The notes under the pieces were generated by a model, which had not been told where the DNA came from, made no database searches, and saw only the letters and a program-made list of their open reading frames with translations. This document shows, piece after piece, positions 27,636 through 59,266 of a stretch of 59,275 bases of DNA. The first letter of the stretch is position 1. Each line of letters begins with the position of its first letter. The stretch lies in the NCBI GenBank assembly GCA_002495535.1, contig DAFX01000038.1, positions 2,439 through 61,713 of the forward strand, written 5' to 3'. Origin of the DNA: Euryarchaeota archaeon UBA433 (GTDB taxonomy: Archaea > Thermoplasmatota > Poseidoniia > Poseidoniales > Poseidoniaceae). The position numbers and the translations under genes are program-made.

Positions 27636-30600
27636 ATGGGGTCGGCTGGGAGCGTGCGTTTTCATGCGGTCGCGATGGTGACCTTGTTTGTTCTCTCTAC
27701 TCTTTTGCTCGGCTACACCCCATCCGATGCCTCGAGTTTAGGGGCCCAACAAAATGCTCACGAAGCGGTGACATTGGGCCAAGCAGAATCCATTACGATC
27801 GGTTCCTTTCCCGATGGGGCAAGCACCAAGGTCGAACTGGAGATCCCAGATGGTGAAGCGATTCAAGGCATAGATATCGATGTTGAACACGCCCGTCTAC
27901 AATCGTCTATGGCCGCTTCGTGGACCGAATCAAACGACTTCTCAAACGGGGCAGTGTATGACGGCATGGACGTCAATGGTTCTTCTCTAAGCATTCTCCC
28001 TCAGGGTTGGGAGTGGGATTTCGAAAACGCCAATCACGGCTGGACCCTTGGTTCCCCTGCATGGCTTTGGGGCTTTGACACCAGTCTTGGCCAAGCAACT
28101 AGCGTGAGCAGCGGAACAAAGGCCATTTACACCTACAACGGAAATTATCCAAACAATATGGGTTCAACGATTTGGGCCACATCCCCTGTGATGGATTGTT
28201 CTTCGTGCTCAGGGTCATGGGACTTGGATTTCATGAAGCGCCTCGGCGTTGAAAGTTCCTCCTGGGACCATGCTTATGTTTCCGTAAAGAGCACCAATGG
28301 CAACTGGGTCAATGTCTATTCAAATTCGGGTTCTGTCAACGACGGTTCCATGACTTCACAAACTATTTCGATCACCAATTATGTTGCCGGCAACGCAAAT
28401 TTCCAAGTTCGTTTCGGGATTGGAACCACGGACAGTTCGGTGACCTACACCGGTTGGAACGTGGACGATGTATCGGTCTTGCCGACCGCAAGCGGTGTCT
28501 CCTCAGGTGAGGGCAACTGGACTTCAGCGGCGTTCGGACCCAGCCAATTTGGTCAAGGCGAAAACAAGGCCTACGGTTACCTTCACATCGATGCGGTCAT
28601 ACCAGCTAACTCTGTGTTCGAATGGCGCCTTCTCGATGCCGTGACGCTTCAACCCGTAGCTGGCTTTGAACACATGACTGGGGTCAGTGTAGATCTCGGT
28701 GTGGTCGATTGGACCATGCATCCGTTGGTTCGCTTGGACCTCCACATGCAAAGCGGTTCGATGGGCATTCCAACGGTTCATGGCTTCCATTTTAACGGGA
28801 TCTTGTTCGAAGACTTTGATCAAGATCCAACGAATCAAGGGTGGCAATTGCAGAGCCAAACTTGGTCTCCAGGCCAACTCAGCGGCAGTGGCAGCGCCGT
28901 CTCTCCAATTTACAATGTGCGGAGTGGTTTTGGCGGCATCCTTTCCAACAGCGTCCTAAGTGGCTCCGCAGTGCTTGAGGCAACGGTCGATGGCGGCTTA
29001 ACATGGGACACGATCACGCCCGGGGTCCGTCACCTGTTCGATGGACCAGAGTTCTCCGCACAACTCCGTTTGACCTCCTCCGGTGGCTCGTGGACCCTCG
29101 ACACGTTAGACATTGAATTAATTCGCACGAGTGTGGTTGATGATCTGCGTTTCGATGTTGCCCTCGATGGCGTTGCAGACTGGTCGATGGCCCTGCCAGA
29201 AGTAGGACGGTTAGGGATCCAAGATGGGTTCCTTGACGGTTCGCTATGGCAGAGTCGTGCTTCATCGCCAAGCGCACCAGCACTGTATGATTTGGCGTTG
29301 CCTCTTGATGGTGTGAATGCCTTTGAATTTGCAGTTGCATCACCCGCAGCCCCCTCGGTCAACCCGACGGTAAAACTCTCCGTCGACGGTCAAGAAGTCG
29401 TGAGCAAGAGCGTACCAACGATTCAAGATTTGACCTTTGTTCGTTTGACTTCATCAGAACTTGCAAACCTCAACAGTGCACTGTCTCAGGCCGTTGCAAC
29501 TCACGGCCCGAAAGGGTTGCCCTTGGCTTCAGTTGGTATTTCTATAGGTTCCTCCTCTTCGATGAACTCCTTTGTGGCAGGCGGAATTTTCGCTCCCTAT
29601 GACGGTGCGCTGAGCATGGCCTTCACGGCAAGCGACCCGTTGGTGGTCGCCTTGAACAATGAATTGACATCGCAAACTGCGATTGGTGGGGTTAAGACGA
29701 TCAGCATGCCAATTCGAATGGGCGCAACGGGTGCGATCTCCATAACCGTCGATCAAATCAACACTCAAAGTTCAGTGGACCCAGTCTCCATTCAGGTGAG
29801 CAATGTAAGCGATACTTTCGTTGCTTCAACCGAATGGATTGAAGTGAGCAGCACCTTTGATTTCGCTCCTCTTGGAGTGACTGATGCTGCTTCATACGTC
29901 AAAACTAACGGTTGGTCCGTGGTTCTACAACTCCAAGGCTTGGTTCGAAGTTCTCACATTACCTGTCCATTTGTCTCACTTCCAGCTGAGGGCAACCTTG
30001 GTTGTTCAACCCAAGGCGCTCCAATGGTCTGGTCGGATAATGGAGCCCTCGGCTCCAAGCAAATCACTGGAAGTGGTTCCTTCCTTCAAATCGACCACAG
30101 GTTCAAATTCACGGAACAATGGGATGACGAAGATTCATTGACGCTTTCAGTGAACCTCATATCGCCTTCCGGGCCAATGATTCCGGTGAGTATGAACTAC
30201 GGCCTTGGCGATGCACAAGGCGTGGAGAACGATGTCCAACTCACATCGTGGCGTTCGGTCAATCAAGTTGGAGTTGGGACCGAACTTGCCCACCCATACC
30301 TCCACCCCGGTGAAGTGGTCACCATCGAGGCTGATTTGGACTTTGAAGGGCTCGCAAATTCTCCTTCGCCTCGCTCGGGAAGCGTCGATGTCTGTTTCTA
30401 TGTAGATGACGTTCAGAATCAATGCACAAGCGTGTACAATCGTGGTGTTGCATCCTTCCCGTGGAACGTTCCTTCCGGCAAACAGAGCGTGGACCTTCGA
30501 ATCGAACTGGTCCCACTGCAAGGGCAAAGCGTCAGTTACGCTGTTTCAAACACTGCAACGTTCAACTTCGATGTGATTGCACCAGAATTGCTGGGTATGA

Positions 30601-32687
30601 ACGTGGCAACTTTTGATCATATGGATGCGGGTCCAAACACCGCCCTTGAATTCCGCATTGCGGACCGTCCAGTCCTACCATCTCATGCCTATGTTCACAT
30701 GTGGCGCTCATGGTTGGACGACGCCAACATGGATGGAATCATGGACGCTGAGGAAGTGTCTATTCTGGAATTGCAAGTACCTGAAAACAGAAGTCAAGTT
30801 CAGGCAGATTACCTTTACAGTTTTGATTCTTCTTCCTACCAATCCGGCGCTATGATGCGAGGTTGGCTTGACGTAGCTGACTCAGCGGGCAACCCTATGC
30901 TTGCTTCTGGCACAATAGAATCGCCTTTGTTTAACCTCCAAATCAACAATGACGGCGCCCCTCAACTCGGTTCCACACCCGCAACTTGGAACACCGATGG
31001 TGAGGCCTGGTTGCACCCGGGTGAACACAACTTGCTTAGCGTCCCTGTCTGGGATATGAATGGAATTTCCGACCTGGCGACAATCGAAATCGACCTCGCA
31101 AGCAACCGCAACACGCCGGTTTTCGTTTCCTGGAACGCTACAACCAACCTGTGTGAAAGCAACAATATCTTTGTTGAAATTGAATCTTGCTTGCTGGAAG
31201 CTGTGAGCAGCGAGGATGTGTTTTCTACCGAGGGTATGTTTCACGTGAATTTCTCCCTTGAATGGGGCTTTGATCCCGATGTGAGTTTGAAACGAACGCC
31301 GTCGGTTCTCGTTCACGATCGTTCTGGGCAATCCAACGTCGCCAGCCTACCATTACTTGATTGGCGGTTCTCAGGCGAATTTGAAATCCCTCAAACAAGC
31401 ATGTCCTTTGATGTTGAGGGCACACCCATGGACGCCTTGGGCACATGGATTCAGCCTCGCTCAGAAATAGGCGTGAGCGGAGATTTAGTTTGGTACCGTT
31501 CTCAACATCCAGTTGTTCAATCCGTTGATCTGCAGGTCGATATCGGCGGTACAGAGTCTGTCATGGAATCAATAAATGGTTCGTTTTCCGACACCATCAC
31601 AGCCCCGCTCTCACCTGGCACCTACGGGCTCACAACCTCACTCTCAGATCCTCCGAACGGTGCCATTGACCGAACAGAACCCGCTCCATTTGCATATTTC
31701 ATCGTCGACCCTCAGGCCCCAAGTGTTGTAGGGGTTGCCTCACCACCTGTCAGTGGTGTCATCGAAGAATCCTCGTGGGCTGATTTGAAGTTCGAGATCA
31801 TGATCGATGAGGAAGACCGATTGAATGAAGAAAGCCTCACGCTGAACTGGGCTGTCCATGAAGAGGGTCTTGGTTTGTCAAGTCCGATCATCGTCAACGG
31901 CTCAGTCATGCTCGAGGTGGTTGGCGGCAGGGCTTACGGTTCGATGATCCCTACAGAGGCTCAGTTGAACCTCGATGAGCAGTTGACCACCACAATGCGC
32001 TCAAAAGCCCTCGAATTAAGAATTTACGTCACGGGTTCAGATGTTGCAGGTTACCCAATGGTGCCGATTTTCAACGATCTCGATGCGCCCTTATCCGTTT
32101 GGGCTCTCGAGCAACGGGTTGCAGAATACACCTTCCTTGATCCTGGCATGAAGCCGTCAAAAGATCTGGCCGAAGGCGATGTTGTCACCTTGGCTGTGAC
32201 CATTGAAAACAACGGCAGGGCTGATGGTTTGGCTCAAATGTTTGTGGAACGCGTTGAAAGCAACGGGGCAAGAACTCGAATTGACGCTCGGGAAATCCAA
32301 ATTCCAGCTGGCGGGCAATTGGAATACAGCAAGGATTGGATGCCGGATCGCTCTGGCACAATGTGGATTGAATACCACATTATCAGTGGGCCTTCGGCTC
32401 AAACAAACACGGTGTTTGTTGATGAGCCAAGAACTGAAGGGGTTCTTGGAAGTGTGGCTGCCGTCAACCCGGTTCTTTTAATCATCATCTTTTTGCTGAG
32501 CGTATCCCTCGTAGCGGTCTTGTTGTTTGGCCTCCAATCCCCTCAACCGAAGAATTGGAACGTCGAGCAGAGCAAGGCCGTTGACAAGGCACTGCCGACA
32601 TTATCCAAACCAGTGGATGCCCCAGAATCAGGCCCCTACGGCGCTGAACAAGCGAGTTCTTCCCCTGGCGAAAACCCGTACCAGTGA
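27636..32687 (+). CDS. Giant (1683 aa) secreted surface protein: MAM/choice-of-anchor-J-like N-terminal module, long beta-rich body, CARDB-like domain, TM anchor, cytoplasmic tail
   Basis: Signal peptide MVTLFVLSTLLLGYTPSDA, WEWDFENANHGW...GWNVDDVSVLP, CARDB-like DLAEGDVVTLAVTIENNGRADG...IQIPAGGQLEYS, and TM helix VNPVLLIIIFLLSVSLVAVLLFGL. Confidence 0.8.
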   Translation: MGSAGSVRFHAVAMVTLFVLSTLLLGYTPSDASSLGAQQNAHEAVTLGQAESITIGSFPDGASTKVELEIPDGEAIQGIDIDVEHARLQSSMAASWTESNDFSNGAVYDGMDVNGSSLSILPQGWEWDFENANHGWTLGSPAWLWGFDTSLGQATSVSSGTKAIYTYNGNYPNNMGSTIWATSPVMDCSSCSGSWDLDFMKRLGVESSSWDHAYVSVKSTNGNWVNVYSNSGSVNDGSMTSQTISITNYVAGNANFQVRFGIGTTDSSVTYTGWNVDDVSVLPTASGVSSGEGNWTSAAFGPSQFGQGENKAYGYLHIDAVIPANSVFEWRLLDAVTLQPVAGFEHMTGVSVDLGVVDWTMHPLVRLDLHMQSGSMGIPTVHGFHFNGILFEDFDQDPTNQGWQLQSQTWSPGQLSGSGSAVSPIYNVRSGFGGILSNSVLSGSAVLEATVDGGLTWDTITPGVRHLFDGPEFSAQLRLTSSGGSWTLDTLDIELIRTSVVDDLRFDVALDGVADWSMALPEVGRLGIQDGFLDGSLWQSRASSPSAPALYDLALPLDGVNAFEFAVASPAAPSVNPTVKLSVDGQEVVSKSVPTIQDLTFVRLTSSELANLNSALSQAVATHGPKGLPLASVGISIGSSSSMNSFVAGGIFAPYDGALSMAFTASDPLVVALNNELTSQTAIGGVKTISMPIRMGATGAISITVDQINTQSSVDPVSIQVSNVSDTFVASTEWIEVSSTFDFAPLGVTDAASYVKTNGWSVVLQLQGLVRSSHITCPFVSLPAEGNLGCSTQGAPMVWSDNGALGSKQITGSGSFLQIDHRFKFTEQWDDEDSLTLSVNLISPSGPMIPVSMNYGLGDAQGVENDVQLTSWRSVNQVGVGTELAHPYLHPGEVVTIEADLDFEGLANSPSPRSGSVDVCFYVDDVQNQCTSVYNRGVASFPWNVPSGKQSVDLRIELVPLQGQSVSYAVSNTATFNFDVIAPELLGMNVATFDHMDAGPNTALEFRIADRPVLPSHAYVHMWRSWLDDANMDGIMDAEEVSILELQVPENRSQVQADYLYSFDSSSYQSGAMMRGWLDVADSAGNPMLASGTIESPLFNLQINNDGAPQLGSTPATWNTDGEAWLHPGEHNLLSVPVWDMNGISDLATIEIDLASNRNTPVFVSWNATTNLCESNNIFVEIESCLLEAVSSEDVFSTEGMFHVNFSLEWGFDPDVSLKRTPSVLVHDRSGQSNVASLPLLDWRFSGEFEIPQTSMSFDVEGTPMDALGTWIQPRSEIGVSGDLVWYRSQHPVVQSVDLQVDIGGTESVMESINGSFSDTITAPLSPGTYGLTTSLSDPPNGAIDRTEPAPFAYFIVDPQAPSVVGVASPPVSGVIEESSWADLKFEIMIDEEDRLNEESLTLNWAVHEEGLGLSSPIIVNGSVMLEVVGGRAYGSMIPTEAQLNLDEQLTTTMRSKALELRIYVTGSDVAGYPMVPIFNDLDAPLSVWALEQRVAEYTFLDPGMKPSKDLAEGDVVTLAVTIENNGRADGLAQMFVERVESNGARTRIDAREIQIPAGGQLEYSKDWMPDRSGTMWIEYHIISGPSAQTNTVFVDEPRTEGVLGSVAAVNPVLLIIIFLLSVSLVAVLLFGLQSPQPKNWNVEQSKAVDKALPTLSKPVDAPESGPYGAEQASSSPGENPYQ

Positions 32688-39759: not shown

Positions 39760-39775
39760 GGACGGGTGTGATTTT

Positions 39776-40321
39776 ATGGCGAATGAACGAGCCTTTTGGG
39801 GCACCGTTGCCTTAGGTGGAATCATCGCTCTCTTGGTGTTGCTCGGTCAACAGGAAAGCGTGGAAGAGGCAAGCGGACTCTGGTCGACTGCTGATGAACC
39901 AGACCCATTGGCCTTCGTTTGCCTTGATCACGACGGACTTGCTCGCCACGACCATGTCACGCTCAAGATTTTCATTGACGATGAGCAGCAGGTCATCCCA
40001 GGAAGCATCGGCATCAACTCAGGTGTCTGCAATCAAAACGGGGGCAACATGCATGCGGTTCACACGCACAACGATGGCGGCCTTCTTCACATTGAACTCA
40101 ACGATGCGGGTGATGTTCCATTGGGGGTATTTTTTGATATCTGGGGCGTTCATTTTGACGAAACAGGTGTGTTTGATCATCGTGCTAATGAAACGCATGA
40201 GATGTCGATGTATGTGTTCAATTCTGACGAACAAGCATCCGAGGAAAACCGTGTTAATTCGTTCGATGATTACCTCTTATTGAACGGTGAGACCATCGAA
40301 GTCCACTACAAAGCACGCTGA
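39776..40321 (+). CDS. Membrane-anchored extracytoplasmic protein with His-rich motif (conserved hypothetical often seen beside DsbA/VKOR genes)
   Basis: N-terminal anchor FWGTVALGGIIALLVLL, then HDHVTLKIFIDDEQQVIPGSIGI...MHAVHTHNDGGLLHIE...LGVFFDIWG. Confidence 0.55.
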   Translation: MANERAFWGTVALGGIIALLVLLGQQESVEEASGLWSTADEPDPLAFVCLDHDGLARHDHVTLKIFIDDEQQVIPGSIGINSGVCNQNGGNMHAVHTHNDGGLLHIELNDAGDVPLGVFFDIWGVHFDETGVFDHRANETHEMSMYVFNSDEQASEENRVNSFDDYLLLNGETIEVHYKAR

Positions 40322-41651: not shown

Positions 41652-41756
41652 GCTCCGGGGAAGAGGGCGACCTCCTTCATCCCTTTGTTCAAGATGGATT
41701 TGAGGCGAGGTTTCTTCAACAGGTCGAATTCCAGTGGGGTTTGCGGAGGGAGTCAA

Positions 41757-42494
41757 GTGGCCGACCATTGGATTGAAAATCACAAGCGAGATTCATGGCG
41801 TCGGCAAGCAAAGGCAAGTGGCTACAGGGCCCGTTCTGCGTTCAAACTCAAGCAAATCCAAGAACGTTTCAATCTGATTCGTGAAGGCGATGTGCTCCTC
41901 GATGTCGGGTGTCATCCCGGTGGATGGGCCCAAGTTGGTATGGAATTGGTTGGCGAGAGCGGATTCGTTCTCGGTATCGACCTTGAACCGTGTCAGCCGG
42001 TTGAGGGCGCATTGCTCCTCACCGGTGACATCACAGATCCACACGCCCAAGAGCGTATGCTTGCTGAATTGAAGGGTAGGCCGCTGAATGCGGTTATTTC
42101 CGACATCTCCCCCAACATCACTGGGAAGTGGGATATGGATCAAGCCGTGGCTATGACCTTGGTCGCCCAAGTGTTCGACTTTTCTTTACCCCTTTTATGC
42201 AAAGGTGGTTCTTTCACAACCAAACTTTTCCAGGGCGTTGGCGTAGAAGAACTGATTGTTGCGGTCAAACCTTACTTTTCCGATGTACGCCGCTTCGCAC
42301 CACACGCTTCGAGAAACTCTTCATCTGAAGTGTATTTAGTGTGCAGAAATTTCATGCCTTGGAAAGCAAAGAATCTCTCGATTCTTGAAACTTATGAGGC
42401 TGCTTTGAACATCAAACTCGGTGGCGATGACATTGAAGAAAGCCCCGACATCATCAAATCGTCCTTTTCTGTTCGAAAAAAGAAAGCTGAATAG
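41757..42494 (+). CDS. rlmE: 23S rRNA 2'-O-ribose methyltransferase RlmE/FtsJ family
   Basis: GYRARSAFKLKQIQERF, DVGCHPGGWAQV, VISDISPNITG, KLFQG, ASRNSSSEVYLVC. GTG 41757 follows GGAGGGAG, and ATG 41694 is an alternative start. Confidence 0.8.
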   Translation: MADHWIENHKRDSWRRQAKASGYRARSAFKLKQIQERFNLIREGDVLLDVGCHPGGWAQVGMELVGESGFVLGIDLEPCQPVEGALLLTGDITDPHAQERMLAELKGRPLNAVISDISPNITGKWDMDQAVAMTLVAQVFDFSLPLLCKGGSFTTKLFQGVGVEELIVAVKPYFSDVRRFAPHASRNSSSEVYLVCRNFMPWKAKNLSILETYEAALNIKLGGDDIEESPDIIKSSFSVRKKKAE

Positions 42495-45987: not shown

Positions 45988-48591
45988 TTGGAGAACAGCA
46001 TGGATACTTCCGCACTCGAGGCTAAGATGGCCCAGAGTGCAGGTTTGTTCCAACGTTCAGCCATCGCCATCTTGGTTGTGGTCGGTATCATTACCGTTGG
46101 ACTGATGGCTCACCTTGCCGTATCGCCTCCAAATTTCAACACCGATCTGGCCGATTTCGCTCCGGACTCTGAAGCCAACGATGCACATGAACGAATTCAC
46201 CAATACTTCCCGAACGAAACTCGTCCTTTATTCATCGAAGTAGCTGCTGACGACGGCTCAAACATTCTTTCTATTGAAAATCTTCAAACGATGGATCAAC
46301 ACCTTAGCGTGATCAAAAACGCTTCTGAATCTCGAGGAGGGATGATCAAAGTCTGGACCACAGCACCGGGCATTGTTCAATTGAGTTTGGATGAAGAAGG
46401 GGACGGTACCCTGCTGGCCGACGTCACCTCTTGGGAACACATGCTGGACTTGATTTTTGAAGACAACACAACCTGCACCATGACAAGTGATGATCAGTTG
46501 CTTTCAGCCGCCACTTATGCTTCTTCAGCATTGTTGAACAAGGATTTGAGCATTGATTCCACCTGTGCTTATCTTGAAACTGGCAACGGCAGTGCGGCCC
46601 CATTCGCATCGACAACGCTTTGGGTCCTCGAAGTCGACCCGGACCTGGACGAGAAAAACAGAAAAATTCTCCAAGACCAACTGCGAGATGAATTCCAAAT
46701 CCTTTCGACCGACTCATCCCTCGATTACGGTGTCGTCTCACTTGATCTCATCTCATACGACATCGATGAAGGTACATTCGAAAACTTGGCTCTCCTTGTC
46801 GTGCTGGCTTTGGTGGTGGTTGTGGTCTTGCTTGCGCTTGCCTTCCGCTCCATACCAGACGTGTTGTTCCCGCTCGTAGGTTTGTCCTCGGCGCTGATTT
46901 GGACTTACGGGGTCATGAACTTGCTTGGAGCAAAATTCACCGCACTGGAAGTAGCTGTCGCTCCGCTCGTGCTCGGGCTAGGGATCGATTACGCTATCCA
47001 CCTTCAGCGAGCCTATGCAGCAATTCGTAAAGAGCATGAGAACCAAGCAGAAGCCTGGTTGCGTTCTTGCGCTCGCCTCTCAGTCCCTCTTCTGCTCGCA
47101 GTTGTGACCACCGTTGCAGCCTTCTTAGCCAACATTATTTCCCCTCTTCCTCCACTTGCAACGTTCGGTTATGCGCTGGCGTTTGGCGTCGTTTGTGCTT
47201 TTGTTTCAGCGACGGTTGTGGTCGGTTCACTCCATGTCGTGTTCCGTTCAGCTGCAGTCAAGAAGGAAGCAAAGCCGATCACCATGCCAAAACTTGTCGA
47301 TCGAATCGTTGCCCTCCAACAAAAGCAGCAAGTAGCCGTTATTCTCGTCACGATTTTGATTTCAGGTGCATCGGTGTTCGGCGCGGCATCGTTGGAGACG
47401 GATTTCGATTTGGGTGACTTTGTGGATCCAGAAATGGAAATTATGGACGTCAGGAACGATCTTGACAAAAACTACGACAGTGCTGGATGGAAATTACTCT
47501 ACATTCTGTTTGAACCAGTGGAAGGCGAATCCAATATTCCGGGGGATTCGCTCCTCTTGGAACAAATACAGGGGCTTCATGCCGATTTAACTTCGAATCA
47601 CGATGTGGTTGGGACCGATGAACGCATTCCCTCGCCAGCCTATGAAGGACCCTATGTTGTTCTTCGTGATGCCATCTTGCGAAACGAATCCTTCGGTGAG
47701 GCCCACAACCTCGAAGTGTTCGACGGTGATGTTTACGTCAGCGAATCAGATCTTGGATGCAACCTCGCTGAAGTGTTCTTGCAACTTTCAACAAATCAAA
47801 CTGTAGCCGATGCCATAAGCGGCGAAACATGGGCGGAACGAGTAGCTCAGAGCGTGGCAATGGATTCGAATGGCATCACCTTTTTGCGCAATGAAGTTCG
47901 TGTCGAAGCCTCCACTTCGACCCAAGCTGAGCGGGTCATTGCCCAGGTCGAGCAGGAACTTGGCTCTGAAGAAGAACGGGGTACACTCCGTGATAACCTC
48001 GTCGACCATGCTGAACTTCACGTCACTGGTGATTTGGTGGTCTTGCAAACTGTGCTCGATGGTCTCAGCGTGTCTCAAATCAAAACTACGCTGATCTCTT
48101 TGGTCGTGTCCAGTGTTGTGCTGTTGTTGTTGACTCGCCGAGTTCTCCCTGCAGTCGTCGTTTTGTTCCCTGTTGCTTTGGCTTCATTGTGGGTTGCAGG
48201 TTCAATGGTCGCTCTTGGTCTGAAATGGAACGTATTGACGGTCATGGTCACCGCCCTGACTTTGGGCATAGGCATCGATTATTCGATTCACATGTGGCGA
48301 CGCTTCGAAGTGGAACTCGAACGACGAGACACGCATTGGGAGGCTCTTCGAGCAGCCCTTTCTACAACTGGGGTTGCGTTGATTATGAGTGCCTTGACCA
48401 CAGGATTCGGTTTCATGGTTCTTCTGTTCTCACCAATGCCAGTGATTCAGGATTTCGGCCTTATCACGGCGGTTACAGTGTTCTTTTCGCTGCTGCTTTC
48501 CCTGATTTTATTGCCGGTGCTTGTGGAATTGTCTGCACGTAACAAGGAACAGGTCGTCGAAGTGAGCGACGGCACCATCATCGAAGGATGA
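45988..48591 (+). CDS. RND-superfamily exporter, COG1033/MMPL-like (second copy)
   Basis: The motif GLGIDYAIHLQRAY is duplicated as GIGIDYSIHMWRRFE, with 12 predicted TM helices and two large loops. The start is TTG 45988 or ATG 46000. Confidence 0.8.
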   Translation: MENSMDTSALEAKMAQSAGLFQRSAIAILVVVGIITVGLMAHLAVSPPNFNTDLADFAPDSEANDAHERIHQYFPNETRPLFIEVAADDGSNILSIENLQTMDQHLSVIKNASESRGGMIKVWTTAPGIVQLSLDEEGDGTLLADVTSWEHMLDLIFEDNTTCTMTSDDQLLSAATYASSALLNKDLSIDSTCAYLETGNGSAAPFASTTLWVLEVDPDLDEKNRKILQDQLRDEFQILSTDSSLDYGVVSLDLISYDIDEGTFENLALLVVLALVVVVVLLALAFRSIPDVLFPLVGLSSALIWTYGVMNLLGAKFTALEVAVAPLVLGLGIDYAIHLQRAYAAIRKEHENQAEAWLRSCARLSVPLLLAVVTTVAAFLANIISPLPPLATFGYALAFGVVCAFVSATVVVGSLHVVFRSAAVKKEAKPITMPKLVDRIVALQQKQQVAVILVTILISGASVFGAASLETDFDLGDFVDPEMEIMDVRNDLDKNYDSAGWKLLYILFEPVEGESNIPGDSLLLEQIQGLHADLTSNHDVVGTDERIPSPAYEGPYVVLRDAILRNESFGEAHNLEVFDGDVYVSESDLGCNLAEVFLQLSTNQTVADAISGETWAERVAQSVAMDSNGITFLRNEVRVEASTSTQAERVIAQVEQELGSEEERGTLRDNLVDHAELHVTGDLVVLQTVLDGLSVSQIKTTLISLVVSSVVLLLLTRRVLPAVVVLFPVALASLWVAGSMVALGLKWNVLTVMVTALTLGIGIDYSIHMWRRFEVELERRDTHWEALRAALSTTGVALIMSALTTGFGFMVLLFSPMPVIQDFGLITAVTVFFSLLLSLILLPVLVELSARNKEQVVEVSDGTIIEG

Positions 48592-49182
48592 TCAATACAC
48601 TGAAAGCGCAGCGGTAATGTCTTCCATCGCTAGGCCTTGCTCTCGGGCTACCAACGCTAGGCATACCCAGTGGCTGGCATAGGTGAGCGCCTTTGCTTTC
48701 CGTTCTGCTCTTCGCTCGACCTCTTCGACTGCAAGTTGAGATTGTCGAGCGATAAATTTAGTCAATCTTGGCGTCAACTTCGAGCGTGGGTCGTCGTTCA
48801 CCTGGGCTGGTTTGGCCTTTGCATTTGCCTCACCTGTTGGAGCGTTTGGGAGCGGTGTTGAGCGCGATTCTTTGTCGCGTTTTGGCTCCTCACTCGTGAT
48901 GGGGTTTGACGGCTGAAGCAAGCGTGATGGGCGTGGGAACCAACCGAGTGGTGAAGTGATGCCCTGAAGGGACACTGTTGGGGTGAGGGCCTCTTGCGAA
49001 CCCGACAACCATCCTGCTTTGATCAGGGCTTGAACGGATGCCTCGGCTTCTTCTGGTGAGAGCCATTCCATGTCGAAGGACATGACTCGTTCCAAATCGA
49101 GGGCATCGAGGCTCGCTCCTTCTCGGAAACATATGGCCAGCACACGCAAGACATCTTGGGTGTCTTCCTGGCTCATGCTCAT
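48592..49182 (-). CDS. Conserved archaeal protein, DUF2240-like
   Basis: LDLERVMSFDMEWLSPEEAEASVQALIKAGWL, a low-complexity linker, and C-terminal ...HWVCLALVAREQGLAMEDI resemble haloarchaeal DUF2240 proteins as I remember them. Confidence 0.5.
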   Translation of the reverse strand: MSMSQEDTQDVLRVLAICFREGASLDALDLERVMSFDMEWLSPEEAEASVQALIKAGWLSGSQEALTPTVSLQGITSPLGWFPRPSRLLQPSNPITSEEPKRDKESRSTPLPNAPTGEANAKAKPAQVNDDPRSKLTPRLTKFIARQSQLAVEEVERRAERKAKALTYASHWVCLALVAREQGLAMEDITAALSVY

Positions 49183-49223
49183 GCACAGAAGCCTCCTGTT
49201 GAAGAAGGTAAGCCCAACATTTT

Positions 49224-52200
49224 CTATTCGATTCGAGTGAATGTCTTGTCTTCATTCATCCGCCATATTCCGCAGGCTTCACCCTTGTAGACAGTCTGAT
49301 CCATGGCGTAATCATATTCCCCACCCGGTGGTAATTGCGACCACTCTTCAACGCTGCTTCCAACGCTCAATTCGACCGAATCAGGTTGAACTTGAATCAA
49401 TGAATCAAGCGCCTTTGCCCCGTCAACTGGCTCTGCTGCTGGTTCTGAGGCTTGACGAGGTGGTGGCCCTTTGAGACCCGAAGGCTTGGGTTTTGGGGTT
49501 GCCGACCTTTGAGGTGGACCAGAGAGTGGCTTTGCAACAGTTTTGCTCGGAGCATCCGCTGTAGGGAACTGCGTGATTTCCAAAGGTTTCTTTCGGCGAA
49601 GAAGAAGAACAATTCCAGCAAGGAGCGCTACCGAGATGCCTCCACCTGCAACAAGTGTAGCGGATCCAAACCCACTTTGAGGTGCGGTGTAACTCTTGTT
49701 CCAAGCGTTATTCGTTTCGTCCACTTCCCACATCGTTTGCTCCGCATCGGCTTCAATGACAAGCGTCCATGCCCCTTCCGGAACGGTCAGCGTGCTTCGC
49801 AAGGTCATTGCCGTGTTGGTACCAATCTTTGGGACCAATTCCCGACCAACGAGGGTTTTCTCACCGTCGACAAGCGTGTATATCGAGACATTGAATGGCG
49901 TGTCAATGGCTTCACCAAGGCTCACAAGTTGAATGCCAAGTCTCATGGTTGCGCCGGGTTCCCCTCCATCCGTCACGTCCACTTTTGAAATCGCAACATC
50001 CGGTCCAATGCTGCTCAGGGGGAGCACCAACCAGGGGTCCAATTCAGAGTTCCCAGTGCTTGCCTGTAAGGCCCACCCTGCATCGTCTTGTCCACTGGCC
50101 CAGCAAGCAATGTTGGCTTGAGTTGAGAGGCTTGATGGATCGCCCAGTTCGCTAAAGTCAAACATGAAAGCGAACATAGTTTTGCCATCATACACCGTTG
50201 ATGAGGCTCGAGAGAGACTGCTCACTGGCCACGATTCATCCAGGGAACGAACCTGACAGGTTAGCGTGAGATTTGACGACCAGAGGTTTGCTTCCTCAAT
50301 GTTGGCACCAATTTCAATCCCACTAAGGTGGAAGCGAGAATAGCCACTGCTCAACGTCGAATCTAGCAACATCGGTGCATCGCCATCGATGCGCAGGGTT
50401 GGCAAATCAATGCTAAGTAATTCGCGTGTTGCATAGGGGTCCCAGACACTCAACTTTGTTTCAAACAAGAGGCCAGAACCCAAAGGCGCATCGAATTCAA
50501 TCGACATCATACCGTCGACTGCTTCCCCTGAAGTGCCTCCAGTCCAGCGGTCACTCTGTAATTTACCGTTCCAGTACACCGAAACTGGACCTGAGTAGCT
50601 GGTGTCACTCAATTCGTGGTGGATGGAGGCGTTGAGGCGAATAGTTTCGCCAGATTGGATGCTCCAACCATCGGTCAAATCGCCTTGCACCTCACCCTCG
50701 ATGTCCATGAGTGATTCCAAAACTACGTTCATGTCCGCCTCATAGGTCCATTGCTGCTCAAACACGATCGAATTGGAACCGTCATAATCTTCGATGAGAA
50801 TTTCGATGCGACCGTCGTTGGTCGCCGGTGTGACAAAGGTCCAATCGGCAACAGCATGGAACTCAATGGTGAGCGTCTCACCAACTGCAGCGGTGCAGCC
50901 ATTGGTGACTTGCAACCTAGCATCAAGGGCTTCACAGGTGTTGAGGTTGGCGTTGTACCTGAATCCAAGGGTAGGGTCGCCGCCCAACAAGAGGCTCACT
51001 CTTGTGATGTCGCTGATTCTGTTGGTATCGCCAACTTCGACCTTCCAACCGAGTTCTTTGGTAGGTTCAATCCTCATCATGCCTGATTGTTCATCGCCAC
51101 CGATCATTTGGAAGTCGAGAAGTTCTCCTTTCTCGGGGGTTCTGCTTTCCCAATGGAGGGTTCCAATCGCGGGGTCAACTTCACCGATGTTGTAGCCGGC
51201 AAAATCAGTCCCAACCAACAACACTCGTACTTTTTGGTGGTCTTCATTGGCCGTATCGTTGACGTGAAGGGTGATCGTCCAATCGTCCTCGACGTTGGAA
51301 AAAGTGAGGGGGTGTTGCTGGTATTCGCTTTGTTCTGCAATGTTATTGCCTGATGCGTCATGAAGGGCCTCAATCCAAAGGAATCCGGTGAGCGTTTGGT
51401 TTGAGAAACCACCGACATCATGGTAGTTCAGTTCCACAATGCGTTCGCTCTGTTCGTTGGTATAGGCTCCAATCAGCGGGGTTGTACTTGTCATCACTGG
51501 CGCTTCGATGTTGATGTGGATGGTTCGGTTCAAGGGCATCGTTTGCAGGTCCAAATCTTCTGATGTCCGAGCTTCAAGCCAAATTCTTGCCTGGCCGGAA
51601 GTTCCGTTGGGGACCGAGAATTCAACCTGAGTCGTTGCGCCTACATTGAGGGATGTCCATGTTCCAGGGTTGGTGTAACTGGCGCCACCCAAGGCATCGG
51701 TCGCTTCGACATCGACGTTCATTCTTGCTTCAATGAATCCATTCAATAACCGTGCACCAGAATTTGTGAAGGTCTGATCGACGGTGGCAACCATCAAAGC
51801 ATCACCCGGATAAATTTCATTTTCATCAACAGAAGCATCGCCTTGGCTGCTCGATGTCGAGGTTAAATCGATCACCTCAATCGTCATTTGGTTGTCGATC
51901 GATGTGATGGTTGAGGTGGTGTAGACGGTTGTGGCCATGCCGGTGGTCGATACGCTCATCTTCAGGTAGGGTGTACTGAGCCCGTCGTTTACAGCAAACG
52001 ACCAGTCCACGGTGTCAACACCATTCGATGACGTGTGGGTTGCCGAGACATCGCTTGATCTCAAGAGTCCGTCTGGGTCGTCCACTTGCAGTGTGAATGT
52101 GGAGGGCGTGTAGGTCAAAACAGCAGCATCTAATCCGATGATGCTGAACCCGTCGTAGGTCGTTGGCAACACGCTCAGTGAATAGGTCGATTGAGCACCA

Positions 52201-53822
52201 TAAGAGGAATGTGATGTTTTCATCACCGAGACTTCTGCGTTTGGGTTGAGGACTGAAGGTGGCGATGTGACAAAACCAGCCTCCTCGAATCCGACGCTTA
52301 TGTGCTCGAGGTGAGGGGTTGTCCAGTCCTCAAACTGGTTGGTCTCAAACGCCAATTGGTACTGAACCATAGAGTCACCTGGATTGGCATCTGTGAGGGT
52401 GTGGTTGCCAATTGAAAGCGATTCAGAACTTTGGTTCGCCCCAAGCGGTCGCCAAACTCCTGAACTGATGTCTGACAAATCAGCTCCAGTCTTGTATTGC
52501 ATCGTCAGGGCTGTTCCATACGGTGTGTCGCCACCGAAATCCATCCACAACGGTGTTGCACTGGCTTCGATGCTGCTGCGCAAATCGAACACATCGGAAA
52601 GTAAACTTCCAGTTTGGCTGGCAGGATTATCATAGGTTGCCGAAACGTCTGAGTACATCACACTCCATGTGCTAAATCGCCAATTGGCACTGTCGCCACC
52701 AGCATAGACAAGGGTGCCGTCTACATTGAGCAAATCAAAGTCGTACAGTTGGCTGTGCAGGGCTCCATGAGCGTGTATGTCGCCGGTCCGAGGGTCGTAG
52801 CCTCTCACCAAGTCATAGCGTACAGTAGAACTCATACCTCCTGCAATGACAATCTCATCGTTGTGAACAACAGCAGAGTGAGCTGCAATCTTGAACGGCA
52901 AATCGGTTCCATTCGTCCATGTATTTGTTGCAGGATCGTAAATCTCTGTGTGGTTGGCCGGCAGGGTCGTTGTTTGATTGAGTGCAGCATCAAAGAGTCT
53001 GACATAGCCTCCAAGAGCGTACAGTTTTCCATGGAACGCCACCAGTTCGAATGAGTGTCGAGGAGCGCTCATGTTTGCCATGTAATCCCACACATCGGTT
53101 GCAGGGTTGTATCGCATAGTTCGGTTGGTTAAATCAGAACGATCTTTCATCCCGACACCTCCTGCGACGTAGATGAACCCATCAAGGGCGTCCATACCAG
53201 CAAGCCCGACTCCAGTGGTGGAAGGCATCGATGTGCCAGTGCTCCAATTGTTGGTGCTTGGATCGAAAATGTGGACCAAACCGTCACCACGAACAGCTGG
53301 TGTTGCGAACGGATGGTAGTCCCCAATCGAGTAAATCTTGCCCTGGACATTGACGCACTCGTGGTAGGCCTGGGCCTGTGGAAGGGTGTCGGGGTTTGGC
53401 GACCAAGTCTGGTTCACTATGTCGAATGTTTCAATGAAATTAGTTGCTGCTTCATCGCCAGTTTGACTCGGGTTCGGGTCGTATCGTCCACCGATCAACC
53501 AAGCTTCTTCGGTGAGTTCGTTAAGCGCCAAACAGCCTGCGGTCCTCGCAAACATCATCCCAGGTGCAGCGACCGTCTGCATCGAGATGACGGGACGGTT
53601 CAGCATCGGCGTTCCGTTTGAGGGGTTCACGGTGATGTTGGAAGGGGTGAACCCGTCGCTTGCATTGAAACCACTCGAGGTGGAAACTGAAGAAAGGACG
53701 ACGACTTCATCGGCTAAATTCACTTCTGAACCCGGGTCGATTACACCGCTGTACGGCATTAGCAACATCGCCAAAACCGCCCAACAAACGAAGATGAAAT
53801 GCCTTGGCGAGTGGGTGGCCAT
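49224..53822 (-). CDS. Giant (1532 aa) secreted surface protein: Kelch-repeat beta-propeller, long beta-rich body, CARDB-like domain, TM anchor, 120-aa cytoplasmic tail
   Basis: Signal/anchor FIFVCWAVLAMLLMPYSG, Kelch-like repeats (GGRYD..., GKIYSIGDY, GFIYVAGG, GKLYALGGY, DEIVIAGG, TLVYAGGD), CARDB-like DVAISKVDVTDGGEPG...VDETNNAW, and TM helix GGGISVALLAGIVLLL followed by RRKK. Confidence 0.8.
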   Translation of the reverse strand: MATHSPRHFIFVCWAVLAMLLMPYSGVIDPGSEVNLADEVVVLSSVSTSSGFNASDGFTPSNITVNPSNGTPMLNRPVISMQTVAAPGMMFARTAGCLALNELTEEAWLIGGRYDPNPSQTGDEAATNFIETFDIVNQTWSPNPDTLPQAQAYHECVNVQGKIYSIGDYHPFATPAVRGDGLVHIFDPSTNNWSTGTSMPSTTGVGLAGMDALDGFIYVAGGVGMKDRSDLTNRTMRYNPATDVWDYMANMSAPRHSFELVAFHGKLYALGGYVRLFDAALNQTTTLPANHTEIYDPATNTWTNGTDLPFKIAAHSAVVHNDEIVIAGGMSSTVRYDLVRGYDPRTGDIHAHGALHSQLYDFDLLNVDGTLVYAGGDSANWRFSTWSVMYSDVSATYDNPASQTGSLLSDVFDLRSSIEASATPLWMDFGGDTPYGTALTMQYKTGADLSDISSGVWRPLGANQSSESLSIGNHTLTDANPGDSMVQYQLAFETNQFEDWTTPHLEHISVGFEEAGFVTSPPSVLNPNAEVSVMKTSHSSYGAQSTYSLSVLPTTYDGFSIIGLDAAVLTYTPSTFTLQVDDPDGLLRSSDVSATHTSSNGVDTVDWSFAVNDGLSTPYLKMSVSTTGMATTVYTTSTITSIDNQMTIEVIDLTSTSSSQGDASVDENEIYPGDALMVATVDQTFTNSGARLLNGFIEARMNVDVEATDALGGASYTNPGTWTSLNVGATTQVEFSVPNGTSGQARIWLEARTSEDLDLQTMPLNRTIHINIEAPVMTSTTPLIGAYTNEQSERIVELNYHDVGGFSNQTLTGFLWIEALHDASGNNIAEQSEYQQHPLTFSNVEDDWTITLHVNDTANEDHQKVRVLLVGTDFAGYNIGEVDPAIGTLHWESRTPEKGELLDFQMIGGDEQSGMMRIEPTKELGWKVEVGDTNRISDITRVSLLLGGDPTLGFRYNANLNTCEALDARLQVTNGCTAAVGETLTIEFHAVADWTFVTPATNDGRIEILIEDYDGSNSIVFEQQWTYEADMNVVLESLMDIEGEVQGDLTDGWSIQSGETIRLNASIHHELSDTSYSGPVSVYWNGKLQSDRWTGGTSGEAVDGMMSIEFDAPLGSGLLFETKLSVWDPYATRELLSIDLPTLRIDGDAPMLLDSTLSSGYSRFHLSGIEIGANIEEANLWSSNLTLTCQVRSLDESWPVSSLSRASSTVYDGKTMFAFMFDFSELGDPSSLSTQANIACWASGQDDAGWALQASTGNSELDPWLVLPLSSIGPDVAISKVDVTDGGEPGATMRLGIQLVSLGEAIDTPFNVSIYTLVDGEKTLVGRELVPKIGTNTAMTLRSTLTVPEGAWTLVIEADAEQTMWEVDETNNAWNKSYTAPQSGFGSATLVAGGGISVALLAGIVLLLRRKKPLEITQFPTADAPSKTVAKPLSGPPQRSATPKPKPSGLKGPPPRQASEPAAEPVDGAKALDSLIQVQPDSVELSVGSSVEEWSQLPPGGEYDYAMDQTVYKGEACGIWRMNEDKTFTRIE

Positions 53823-53890
53823 GGCCTAGGACTTTGACGGCGCTTCAAGAGTGTTGCGTGCCCTTGTCAGGGGATGAAACACAGTGAACC

Positions 53891-55300
53891 TTGATAGAGG
53901 CTCGAATTCGAAGCACTTCCGCAGGCCATAGGTTCATTGGTTACGACCTCTTGCGCCGCACTGGAGGACTCAGTTTGGTACGTGAATATATTGCCCGAGA
54001 CCCTCGAACCGGCCTCCCGCTTAACGTTGCTCGAAGCAAGAAGGTCGACAAGAAGATTGTCAGCCAGACAGGTCCGTGGGTGAGCATCTCTGATGTCGAT
54101 GTCCTTCCACTGGCGCGTGGAGAGATTGACCAGGTCCAAACTCGTTACATGGACAGAACTCACACTCATGATCGCTCGGCAGGTGTTCGAGCTCTTGGTC
54201 GCTTCAGCGGTGCTTCTATTCATGACGCCCACAGTGCGCTCATGGTAGCGTTTGAACAAGACGAAGCCGAAATTCGGGTCGCAGCACTCGATGTGCTTCC
54301 TGAAGTCGCTGTTCGTAAATCAAACGAATTGTTTGACTGGTTGTCGGTTCTTTTGGACGACGAAGACGCCCAAGTTCGAATGGCAGCGAGCCGTTGCTTG
54401 ACCCTGACAGCGCCGGTGTTCCCCTCTGCGGTTGAAACAATACTGGGCAATGAATTACGCTCTTCACAAAAATCACGAATGGACGCTGCTTGGGCGGGAC
54501 TCAAAGCACTGTGCGACACGTGGCCTGAAGTTGTTGTTCACCACATCGACACCCTCTTGCTCGAAGACGAGGCCGTGTTAAGACGCAAAGCAGCGGGACT
54601 TCTCAAGCGGGTTGTCGCTCGAGGGGGCCCTTCTGTTTGGGATCTGATCTCTTGGTCACTTAACGACATAGATGTTGAAGTTCGCAGGATTTCTGCCCGC
54701 ACACTTCCAAGCCTTGCCAAGCGCGAGTCGAGGATTGCTACCTCCTTTGCCGAGCGAGCAATGTTGGATTCAGATTCCAAGGTTCGATTGAGCGGTATAA
54801 AAGCCCTGCAGACTATGGACACTGACCACGGTCGGGCCCGTGAATTGGTGGTGAAAGGCACGGCATCAAGCGATGTTCAGGTTCGTCGAGCTTGCGTCGA
54901 TTTGCTGCCTCGTCTCTTCGGTGAGGATGTCCTTCGAACAATGGCTAGCGATCTGCTCAAGACTGAAACGGACCCGCAGATTGCGGCATCCCTCAAAGAA
55001 ATGACGTTCGATGTATCAATCGACGGTACTGAAGACCAAAAGAACGCACAGCTGGCACCCGCACCCGCAGTCCCCGCCATCGATCGAGAGGTGGCTGAAT
55101 CACAAGGCAAGCAGATTGGATTGGAGCCGAACCGCCCAGTTCTCACCGATGCCGCACCGGAAAAAAGCGCAGAAAAAACGCCGACTCCGCCTGCCTCAGA
55201 CCCGGTTGGTGCCTATCGAGCGGTTTCTCAGGATGAGATGATGGGTTACGATGACGAATTCGAGGATGAAGAGCCCGAAACAGACGACGAATACTTCTGA
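53891..55300 (+). CDS. HEAT/PBS-lyase-repeat protein with acidic C-terminal tail
   Basis: Repeated D..A.VR.AA...L units (EIRVAALDVL, DAQVRMAASRCL, VLRRKAAGLL, VEVRRISARTL, SKVRLSGIKAL, VQVRRACVDLL). The tail is DDEFEDEEPETDDEYF. The start is uncertain (TTG 53891). Confidence 0.6.
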   Translation: MIEARIRSTSAGHRFIGYDLLRRTGGLSLVREYIARDPRTGLPLNVARSKKVDKKIVSQTGPWVSISDVDVLPLARGEIDQVQTRYMDRTHTHDRSAGVRALGRFSGASIHDAHSALMVAFEQDEAEIRVAALDVLPEVAVRKSNELFDWLSVLLDDEDAQVRMAASRCLTLTAPVFPSAVETILGNELRSSQKSRMDAAWAGLKALCDTWPEVVVHHIDTLLLEDEAVLRRKAAGLLKRVVARGGPSVWDLISWSLNDIDVEVRRISARTLPSLAKRESRIATSFAERAMLDSDSKVRLSGIKALQTMDTDHGRARELVVKGTASSDVQVRRACVDLLPRLFGEDVLRTMASDLLKTETDPQIAASLKEMTFDVSIDGTEDQKNAQLAPAPAVPAIDREVAESQGKQIGLEPNRPVLTDAAPEKSAEKTPTPPASDPVGAYRAVSQDEMMGYDDEFEDEEPETDDEYF

Positions 55301-55384: not shown

Positions 55385-55609
55385 GTGTTTATGATGAGTT
55401 CAGGCGCATTTAATGACAAGGAAGAACAATTCGACCGCTTGTGGGACGGCATTACCCCCAAAGGGATCAACCGCAACAAGTCACTGAAATTTCGCCAATA
55501 CATTCTCGAACACGTTCGCCAAACCAAGCGACCTATGAACCGTGAAAACGCTCGTAAGTACTGGATGGGCATCCTCCAAAAGGAAATCGCAGAACGCGAC
55601 GACTACTGA
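55385..55609 (+). CDS. Small hypothetical protein (about 72 aa) upstream of the DEAD-box helicase
   Basis: Basic helical composition. The start is GTG 55385 or ATG 55391. No family recognised. Confidence 0.4.
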   Translation: MFMMSSGAFNDKEEQFDRLWDGITPKGINRNKSLKFRQYILEHVRQTKRPMNRENARKYWMGILQKEIAERDDY

Positions 55610-57097: not shown

Positions 57098-58156
57098 TCA
57101 CTCTTCTTCTGTTCGATTCTTCCATGAGCCCTTTTTCGAAGATGCATGGCGTGATGTTGGAACTTTAACTTCAACCGTGATTGGTTCTGATTCTTTGGTG
57201 TTGGATGGCCAGCGTCCGTCCTCATCGGGTCGCTGAACCTGCACAGAACCGATGGATCCAGCAACGAGGCCGAGGGCAGTAAGGGACCAAGCATACCCAA
57301 TGGCATCGTCCCAGCGGTTTTGGGCTTGGCCACATTCAGAAGTGATCAGGTTGTACTGGTTGCATATGTCAAGGGTCCCCTTTGCATCCATCGCCTCTTC
57401 ATTGCTTGTGATGTTGAAGGCAGCTGCTGCCACCAACACGACTGCAAACGCCAAGATTGCAAAGTGGAGTGGCTTCCATTCCTTTCGGAACGCAAGACGC
57501 CATTCATCAGGCTCTCCATACGCTGCGTCAAGGGTTCGTGCTGGGCCACCAACTCGCCAAAACCATACCAACCACATGGTGATGAGGACGATCATAAAGC
57601 CCCACTTATAGACGAAAGTGTGCCAATTCCACATCCCTGTCAAGCATGCCGCATTGTTTGGATCAGCCAGGCAGTCTTCCATAGCAATGGGGTAAAACAT
57701 GACCAGACGGAAAAGGTTGAGGATGTAGATAATCACGCACATGACCACAATCGAGCGGATTTTCAATTTTTGAGGTACGCCTTCGGTCATGGCCACGAGC
57801 GTCGAGAGGAAGATCATCTCGTGAACCCCCGCGCACTCATCCGAAACGTAGAGGGCAATATGGTCGAAGGTGCCAGGAAAGGCCACGTGGTTGAGTTCAA
57901 TCCTCGTCATCCAACCGTTATGTGTTCCAAGTGTTGAGGCTCCTTCTCCGTACAAGAAGTTGGTCAACTCGTTCCAGAGCCAAGCTTCCGAAACCTGAAT
58001 CGGTGCAAGAGTGTCCGACGGCATGGTCAAAAACCAATAAAACGCCTCTACGCAGATCAAAGCAAGAGGGATTCGAGCATAGCGCAAGCCAAGTTGAGCA
58101 ACCTCAGACCAATCCAAATCGTCGGGGTTTTGCGACGAAGTGGCGGTGGACACCAT
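57098..58156 (-). CDS. Exosortase/archaeosortase-family (EpsH-like) membrane protein, divergent
   Basis: Trimmed to Met33. The Cys motif VSDECAGVHEM is followed about 40 aa later by YILNLFRLV (N..R), then about 29 aa later by WNWHTFVYKWG (His). All lie in hydrophobic helices, matching the sortase-like Cys/Arg/His spacing as I remember it. Confidence 0.55.
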   Translation of the reverse strand: MVSTATSSQNPDDLDWSEVAQLGLRYARIPLALICVEAFYWFLTMPSDTLAPIQVSEAWLWNELTNFLYGEGASTLGTHNGWMTRIELNHVAFPGTFDHIALYVSDECAGVHEMIFLSTLVAMTEGVPQKLKIRSIVVMCVIIYILNLFRLVMFYPIAMEDCLADPNNAACLTGMWNWHTFVYKWGFMIVLITMWLVWFWRVGGPARTLDAAYGEPDEWRLAFRKEWKPLHFAILAFAVVLVAAAAFNITSNEEAMDAKGTLDICNQYNLITSECGQAQNRWDDAIGYAWSLTALGLVAGSIGSVQVQRPDEDGRWPSNTKESEPITVEVKVPTSRHASSKKGSWKNRTEEE

Positions 58157-59189: not shown

Positions 59190-59193
59190 AGAG

Positions 59194-59266
59194 GGCCGTG
59201 ACCGAGAATCGAACTCGGGCTGGCAGAACCACAATCTGCCGTGCTAACCCCTACACCATCACAGCC
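59194..59266 (-). tRNA. tRNA-His (anticodon GUG) with genome-encoded G-1, no encoded CCA
   Basis: The reverse complement folds by hand: G(-1)+GCTGTGA/TCACGGC+C73, D-stem GTGT/GCAC, anticodon stem GCAGA/TCTGC with loop TTGTGGT, T-arm CCGAG-TTCGATT-CTCGG. The 3' flank reads CTC. Confidence 0.9.

Follow-up and report, generated by a model that had tools for sequence, protein, structure and literature searches.

Giant 2 is a 1532-aa predicted type-I membrane-anchored surface protein encoded at 49224..53822 (minus strand) in a stretch of 59,275 nucleotides from a Poseidoniaceae (Marine Group II) archaeon (assembly GCA_002495535.1, contig DAFX01000038.1, positions 2,439 to 61,713), referred to here as the window. 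It forms a new, so far uncharacterised protein family. It is vertically inherited at one fixed site, is dispensable and has been lost repeatedly. On the best-supported reading, giant 2 serves as an accessory adhesin or receptor at the surface, and its paralog in the same window, giant 1, is a core envelope protein. Four open reading frames (ORFs) within 45988-55300 were under study, and all four (an exporter, a DUF2240-like protein, the giant and a HEAT-repeat protein) were found where an earlier description of the DNA, made without database searches and called the sequence-only reading below, had placed them. Giant 2 is probably a Sec-exported, N-glycosylated, disulfide-bonded type-I surface membrane protein whose three neighbors are conserved in position and functionally separate from it. 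An identical coding copy of giant 2 is present in GCA_045568395.1, and its relatives carry the labels Candidatus Poseidoniaceae, Poseidoniales or "Euryarchaeota archaeon".

Gene order was compared in three sets of loci. The DUF2240-anchored set contained one genome per species and comprised 80 loci, of which 77 were informative, with neighbors typed by BLASTP. The giant-2-anchored set comprised seven neighborhoods around giant-2 orthologs of 29-100 % identity. The third set, 80 loci on metagenome contigs, was anchored on RND1, the transporter gene beside giant 1. The order around giant 2 was archaeosortase-like gene, DEAD-box helicase, 71-aa ORF and HEAT, then giant 2, then DUF2240, then the transporter gene RND2, then RpoL and TruD. 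Giant 2 was directly upstream of DUF2240 in 63 of the 77 informative species-level loci and absent from 14 (18 %). All 14 giant-less loci had HEAT beside DUF2240, 40-170 nt apart, with RND2 following. RND2 was full-length in the 12 of them whose contig spans it; in L045 and L066 the contig stops within the gene. The giant-less loci fell at no fewer than five separate ingroup positions, and in the outgroup, on a neighbor-joining tree of RND2, and Fitch parsimony on that tree gave six changes in giant-2 presence. Giant 2 appears to have been lost independently at least five times. Sequence upstream of the giant-2 start and an element downstream of its stop were both retained in the clade of L023, L029 and L075, which indicates a clean deletion of the giant-2 ORF.

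The relation between giant 2 and its neighbors is one-sided: giant 2 holds one inherited site and the neighbors do not need giant 2. It was seen nowhere apart from the DUF2240-RND2 pair, either in the 63 species-level loci or in the giant-anchored set, where DUF2240 and RND2 were downstream in 7 of 7. The HEAT cluster was located elsewhere, though giant 2 was present, in three species-level loci (L076-L078) and in two giant-anchored metagenome loci of the same clade (L002 and L003). The neighborhood is syntenic in relatives, as the sequence-only reading had required of its module. The housekeeping genes RpoL, TruD, EF-1beta and FtsJ were just as syntenic as the neighbors of giant 2, so that synteny alone does not discriminate. 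Conserved adjacency is no evidence for a functional module in genomes as highly syntenic as these. Co-variation of DUF2240 and HEAT with the giant, which the sequence-only reading had named as a check, was not found, as the same 14 of 77 loci keep HEAT, DUF2240 and RND2 without it.

The domain order of giant 2 was largely as first described, with a signal peptide, a Kelch propeller of about six blades, a beta-rich body, a CARDB-like domain, a transmembrane helix and a cytoplasmic tail. A hydrophobic, signal-like segment spans aa 8-29, and giant 2 is predicted to have its own Sec-type signal peptide. The six-bladed Kelch beta-propeller head (aa 95-385; 52668..53540, minus strand) was identified from Pfam matches, PDB matches and blade motifs. 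Kelch families matched aa ~100-340 at E 1e-17 to 1e-22, with scores of 78 bits for Kelch_1 (cutoff 20.1) and 69.6 bits for Kelch_6 (cutoff 25.3). Matches to Kelch propellers in the PDB reached E 2.8e-43, the best being generic Kelch proteins such as KLHL and Keap1, and six GG-type blade motifs were readable between aa 108 and 377. The head is followed by a beta-rich region specific to giant 2 and without a family match (aa 386-604; 52011..52667, minus strand). N-glycosylation sequons numbered 20 against 13 expected, and ten of these were within aa 53-304.

A stalk common to both giants occupies aa 605-1270 (50013..52010, minus strand) and consists of a string of beta-sandwiches, as predicted by hhalign, cross-matches of hidden Markov models (HMMs) and AlphaFold2. 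The AlphaFold2 model of aa 600-1400 was an all-beta string of beta-sandwich domains with a mean predicted local distance difference test (pLDDT) score of 85.8. A Foldseek search with the stalk returned generic multi-Ig, macroglobulin (MG) and FN3 chains at template-modeling (TM) scores of at most 0.2 and no specific relative. The stalk carries two conserved, invariant Cys pairs (963/976 and 1189/1240). In total about 900 residues of giant 2 had no family match. The CARDB-like membrane-proximal foot (aa 1271-1385; 49668..50012, minus strand) aligned with the foot of giant 1. Its match to CARDB (PF07705, aa 1274-1374, 19.5 bits, E 1.2e-3) was below the gathering score of 22.7, and many giant-2 orthologs carry a precomputed PF07705 match. 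The corresponding score for giant 1 was 13.4 bits.

The transmembrane helix (aa 1386-1409; 49596..49667, minus strand) is followed by RRKK and by a cytoplasmic tail of 123 aa (aa 1410-1532; 49227..49595, minus strand). The tail consists of a Pro-rich variable linker and a C-terminal motif. This 38-aa end-motif (aa 1495-1532; nt 49227-49340) contains invariant residues, is confined to giant-2 orthologs and, at 57 % mean pairwise identity, is the best-conserved stretch of the whole protein. No Pfam match was found in the tail regions even at E <= 10. Literature searches on Poseidoniales surface proteins and on CARDB in Marine Group II turned up no mention of these proteins.

Both giants form full-length orthologous families across the Poseidoniales (29-77 % identity and 97-100 % coverage for the two families together). 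Approximately 97 full-length ortholog clusters of 1476-1596 aa and 29-71 % identity were found for giant 2, and more than 100 clusters, with identity down to 33 %, for giant 1. The mean pairwise identity was 48 % for the Kelch head, 53 % for the giant-1 head and approximately 40 % for the stalk. Swappable binding heads had been envisaged on a common foot. Because the full-length families extend across the order and the heads are their best-conserved extracellular regions, each head appears to be fixed in its own family and not swappable.

Giant 1 (27636..32687, plus strand) is a 1683-aa paralog that shares the stalk and foot with giant 2 and was missing from none of the informative RND1-anchored loci. 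Pairwise BLASTP barely detected the relationship (E 0.024). Alignment of the two family alignments with hhalign gave 99.7 % probability and E 1.6e-25 over 694 colinear columns, joining aa 605-1329 of giant 2 to aa 819-1554 of giant 1. An NG(I/L)SD motif, a Cys pair and a D(D/V)AG(W/Y) motif were common to both. The HMM of the giant-1 body picked up giant-2 orthologs (E 1e-18 to 1e-21) but none of the other ORFs of the loci that contain Ig, PKD or CARDB domains, which points to specific homology and not generic Ig-likeness. The giants are paralogs of ancient origin that share a stalk and foot and differ in their heads. Homology beyond generic Ig folds, which the sequence-only reading had required of its module, was therefore present. 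The N-terminal ~600 residues of giant 2 and ~820 of giant 1 did not align and neither did the tails, so that of the proposed common CARDB-transmembrane-tail foot the CARDB-like foot is retained, together with the stalk, and the tail is not. The heads differ as proposed, and the Kelch assignment was upheld. The label "MAM-like" for the giant-1 head came down to one sub-threshold match, to the choice-of-anchor J model NF038128 (aa 127-281, 16.9 bits, cutoff 30, E 0.005), with no Pfam MAM match at E <= 0.1 and no PDB sequence match to the giant-1 profile. Giant 1 had fewer sequons than expected (8 against 14). A search of a database of 5.8 billion proteins with the stalk profile for paralogs with other heads returned only one giant-2 ortholog fragment.

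The DUF2240 protein is a standalone protein of 196 aa encoded between RND2 and giant 2 (48592..49182, minus strand). Its match to PF09999 (43.1 bits, E 4.3e-11) was above the gathering score of 22.3, in agreement with its first description as DUF2240-like. Pfam DUF2240 corresponds to AROD, the acidic domain at the N-terminus of archaeal Rpa1, and standalone AROD proteins have been reported in Thermoplasmata (Madru et al. 2023, PMC10122647). In the AlphaFold2 model (mean pLDDT 87.5), an acidic, AROD-like helical domain at the N-terminus is joined through a disordered linker (aa ~90-130) to a basic C-terminal domain of four helices. Foldseek superposed 46-51 residues of this model on the AROD of Pyrococcus abyssi Rpa1 (8aa9, 8aaj and 8c5z) with a probability of 0.95-0.99 and a root-mean-square deviation of 1.1-1.4 Å, and the superposed part was taken to be the acidic N-terminal helical domain. 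The protein resembles Rpa1 AROD in this predicted domain and in its Pfam match. It differs in having no OB fold and in its additional linker and basic C-terminal domain. PDB sequence searches with the protein and with the DUF2240 profile were uninformative, and the profile gave no sequence-level match to AROD chains in the PDB. A DUF2240 match of 1677 aa (P0329) was considered as a giant-DUF2240 fusion and rejected, being an unrelated FN3-repeat protein.

The gap between the giant-2 stop and the DUF2240 start is 41 nt and contains the conserved element GCTTACCTTCTT (49202..49213, minus strand), with AGGAGG past it at 49192-49197. The form GCTTA(A/C)CTTCTT was present 20-25 nt upstream of the DUF2240 start and was kept in Poseidoniaceae loci with and without giant 2, which suggests that DUF2240 may have expression signals of its own. 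It is possible that GCTTACCTTCTT and AGGAGG are the promoter or ribosome-binding region of DUF2240. The DUF2240 protein is most likely a nucleic-acid or RPA-related factor and not a part of surface display.

The HEAT-repeat protein has an acidic C-terminal tail and is encoded divergently from giant 2 (53975..55300, plus strand). It matched HEAT_2 (PF13646, 32.7 bits, cutoff 27.7) and HEAT (28.7 bits, cutoff 23.5). The longest ORF begins at 53891. Ortholog alignment placed the start at TTG 53975, with a conserved N-terminus xREYIARDPRTGLP. The HEAT repeats, acidic tail and divergent orientation reported at first were all found, and the reported size of 469 aa and spacing of 68 nt were revised to 441 aa and, with this start, a divergent gap of 152 nt. 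HEAT is the first gene of a conserved cluster consisting of HEAT, a 71-aa ORF and the DEAD-box helicase, with the archaeosortase-like gene on the opposite strand. The 71-aa ORF (55394-55609, plus strand) had no family match and was always between HEAT and the helicase. Its identity was 70-97 % across Poseidoniales in most loci and 43 % in the outgroup (L085/L086). The archaeosortase-like membrane protein (57098-58156, minus strand; 352 aa) matched TIGR04178 at 33.9 bits (cutoff 23). Its gene is 3.3 kb from giant 2 and adjoined the helicase/71-aa ORF/HEAT cluster in most loci. Neither giant had an extreme-C-terminal sorting signal that would fit this protein. Giant 2 was considered as an archaeosortase substrate of the PGF-CTERM type, and the idea was dropped because the 123-aa tail follows the transmembrane helix; there was also no PGF motif.

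RND2 (45988..48591, plus strand) is 867 aa in length and is a predicted 12-transmembrane-segment RND-superfamily transporter of the HAE3/MMPL type with two large external loops. It has been annotated at 863 aa, and its start is probably ATG 46000. The match to Pfam MMPL scored 119.6 bits (cutoff 20.5, E 1.8e-34), and the Pfam Patched and sterol-sensing families matched as well. The best NCBIfam match was HAE3 (TIGR00921) at 251 bits (E 1.6e-74), below the trusted cutoff of 351.9; RND1 scored 168 bits against the same model. The hydropathy profile of RND2 showed approximately 12 hydrophobic segments and two large loops. Family matches thus assign RND2 to the RND superfamily, with a score under the cutoff of the HAE3 subfamily model. 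The stop codons of RND2 and DUF2240 abut, and the two genes adjoined each other in every locus whose contig reached beyond DUF2240.

RND1 (33055-35925, minus strand) is an RND transporter paralogous to RND2, so that the claim of an exporter partner common to both giants stands in the sense that each giant is tail-to-tail with a paralogous RND gene. Giant 1 and RND1 were convergent in 50-51 of 53 loci. In L158, L159 and L006 the segment running from VKOR to RND1 was inverted, and giant 1 abutted VKOR instead. In all 65 of 65 loci GT2 (35999-36943, minus strand) was directly upstream of RND1 and shared its strand. GT2 is an AglJ/PpgS-like polyprenyl-phosphate glycosyltransferase whose best matches were AglJ and the polyprenyl-phospho-GalNAc synthase PpgS. 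This pairing hints that RND1 may handle a polyprenyl-linked sugar or glycolipid. RND transporters of the MMPL/HpnN type are known as lipid exporters and not as protein exporters. The two paralogs resemble the MmpL/HpnN/HAE3 lipid transporters in their 12-transmembrane-segment, two-loop build, in their matches to MMPL, sterol-sensing and HAE3 models, and in the constant pairing of RND1 with a polyprenyl-phosphate glycosyltransferase, as in lipid and glycolipid export loci; they differ in scoring under the HAE3, HpnN and MmpL equivalog cutoffs. Given the knowledge of the MmpL/HpnN family and the pairing of RND1 with GT2, the RND genes most likely encode lipid or glycolipid transporters, and RND2 presumably carries a lipid or glycolipid. 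Literature searches on archaeal HAE3/COG1033 proteins and on MMPL together with S-layers turned up no characterized archaeal member. In L085 and L086, the most distant lineage (DUF2240 identity 36 %, no giant 2), an RND1-like gene was present ~6 kb past RND2, at 18.9-20.6 kb. The RND paralogs are thus near one another even in these two loci.

Taken as an accessory adhesin or receptor, giant 2 would carry its Kelch propeller clear of the membrane, on a stalk made up of about ten beta-sandwich domains and ending in the CARDB-like foot. The propeller would most likely be a ligand- or glycan-binding head, the single transmembrane helix would anchor the protein, and the 38-residue end-motif may contact an intracellular partner. 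Giant 2 shares with LapA/RTX adhesins exported by type I secretion a very large, repetitive beta-sandwich stalk, a distal, in giant 2 putative, binding domain and an adjoining transporter gene. It differs from them in its predicted Sec signal and transmembrane anchor, and its neighbor is of the RND/MMPL type and persists without the giant. Domain matches of the locus proteins revealed no RTX repeats or secretion signal and no ABC, MFP or OMP genes in giant 2 or its neighbors. The surface ocean is rich in Marine Group II archaea, which are still uncultured, and to our knowledge their cell envelope has not been described so far. Two order-wide paralogous membrane-anchored giants are concrete candidates for the surface architecture of this group, with giant 1 universal and the Kelch-headed giant 2 optional. 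Both lie by a conserved block that includes genes for glycosylation, disulfide formation and RND transporters.

Several points weigh against this interpretation. The giant-less calls cover the locus only, so that a move of giant 2 to another place in those genomes is conceivable. The length of the giant-2 stalk was taken from the domain count only. An enzymatic head is neither supported nor excluded by the similarity to NanM/YjhT, which is weak (36 bits against a cutoff of 416). Finally, chance is unlikely to have placed both paralogous giants next to RND genes that are themselves paralogous, and the arrangement could reflect a functional link that survives the loss of one giant.

Giant 2 might instead be a structural subunit of an S-layer-like envelope lattice, which was considered unlikely. 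Like many archaeal S-layer glycoproteins it is large, acidic and glycosylated, with a C-terminal membrane anchor and an Ig-like stalk. Its surroundings include AglJ-like, VKOR/thioredoxin-like and archaeosortase-like genes, and its paralog was in every informative locus. The S-layer glycoprotein of Haloferax volcanii has a signal peptide, an acidic, glycosylated ectodomain of Ig-like beta-sandwiches and a single C-terminal transmembrane anchor. Giant 2 is similar in its predicted signal peptide, its acidic all-beta ectodomain with predicted glycosylation, its single C-terminal transmembrane helix and the N-glycosylation genes nearby. It differs in its Kelch head, in its 123-aa tail with an end-motif and in lacking a PGF-CTERM-type signal. 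No sequence match or specific fold match to archaeal S-layer proteins was found. An essential lattice role is hard to reconcile with the repeated, clean loss of giant 2 in 18 % of species, and a propeller on a long stalk with a conserved cytoplasmic motif is more in keeping with a receptor or adhesin. Of the two giants, giant 1 is the stronger candidate for an S-layer protein.

The double giant-RND pairing could also have arisen by inverted duplication of an ancestral cassette of a giant and an HAE3-type transporter, with the RND proteins serving the giants or their envelope. This was given a low probability. The transporters might then deliver the polyprenyl-linked sugar or glycolipid of the AglJ-like enzyme, or might help position the giant glycoproteins. 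If true, the most abundant planktonic archaea of the surface ocean would assemble their envelope by a pathway not described in archaea before. Giant 1 would then be a core envelope protein, and giant 2, with its Kelch head, an optional receptor that its tail motif couples to the cytoplasm.

A dedicated display module, in which RND2, DUF2240 and HEAT would export, dock or regulate the giant and heads would be exchangeable on a common foot, was the proposal of the sequence-only reading and is now very unlikely. It would account for the tail-to-tail arrangement of both giants with paralogous RND genes, the homologous stalk and foot, the constant company of the DUF2240-RND2 pair in the 63 species-level and the 7 giant-anchored giant-2 loci and the short, AGGAGG-containing gap between giant 2 and DUF2240. 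However, the 14 giant-less loci, from at least five lineages, keep HEAT, DUF2240 and RND2 (full-length in 12), so the supposed exporter persists without its cargo. The giant carries a predicted Sec-type signal peptide of its own, and RND transporters of the MMPL/HpnN type are known for exporting lipids. The heads are the most conserved part outside the cell and each is fixed across the order. DUF2240 is AROD-like, and its conserved upstream element is present with or without the giant. HEAT is not upstream of the giant in the lineage of L002, L003 and L076-L078, and the whole region, RpoL, TruD, EF-1beta and FtsJ included, is equally syntenic. The module is already largely refuted for DUF2240 and HEAT.

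A catalytic Kelch head of the NanM mutarotase or galactose-oxidase type, which would make giant 2 a surface-tethered enzyme acting on algal glycans, is likewise improbable: weak NCBIfam matches to NanM (E 2.7e-9) and YjhT (E 6.6e-7), the name "N-acetylneuraminic acid mutarotase" given to some orthologs by JGI and the strong head conservation speak for it, but the scores are far under the family cutoffs (36 against 416 bits) and the best matches are generic propellers such as KLHL and Keap1.

The two giants bracket a conserved block of ~27 kb that mixes envelope-biogenesis and housekeeping genes. Its order begins with RpiA, giant 1, RND1, GT2, a sugar epimerase, a thioredoxin-like protein and VKOR. 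It continues with FtsJ, EF-1beta, TruD, RpoL, RND2, DUF2240, giant 2, HEAT, the DEAD-box helicase and the archaeosortase-like gene. The thioredoxin/AhpC-like protein and the VKOR homolog are side by side (38454-39759, plus strand) and were conserved between the giants in all loci. They may work as a pair that forms disulfides outside the cytoplasm, a function that would bear on the conserved Cys pairs in the giants. The envelope flavor of the block fits giants with conserved Cys pairs, and giant 2 is also rich in sequons. Two conserved ORFs, of 195 aa (39734-40321, plus strand) and 363 aa (40692-41783, minus strand), had no Pfam or NCBIfam match and kept their place between VKOR and FtsJ in nearly every locus.

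Three tRNA genes were located in the window: Pro-TGG (19153-19230), Lys-CTT (26665-26741) and His-GTG (59193-59265). The tRNA-Lys gene adjoins RpiA, directly upstream of giant 1. After tRNA-His, ~120 nt beyond the right end of the window, a 798-aa CARDB-domain protein is encoded (L001 2032-4428), and the stalk HMMs of the giants did not match it. Housekeeping functions make up the rest of the window, including ribosomal protein S3Ae, tRNA synthetases, a proteasome subunit, FttA and thymidylate synthase. Ribosomal protein S3Ae (5431-6540, plus strand) carries a C-terminal SAP domain (PF02037, E 1.3e-10), which is an unusual fusion.

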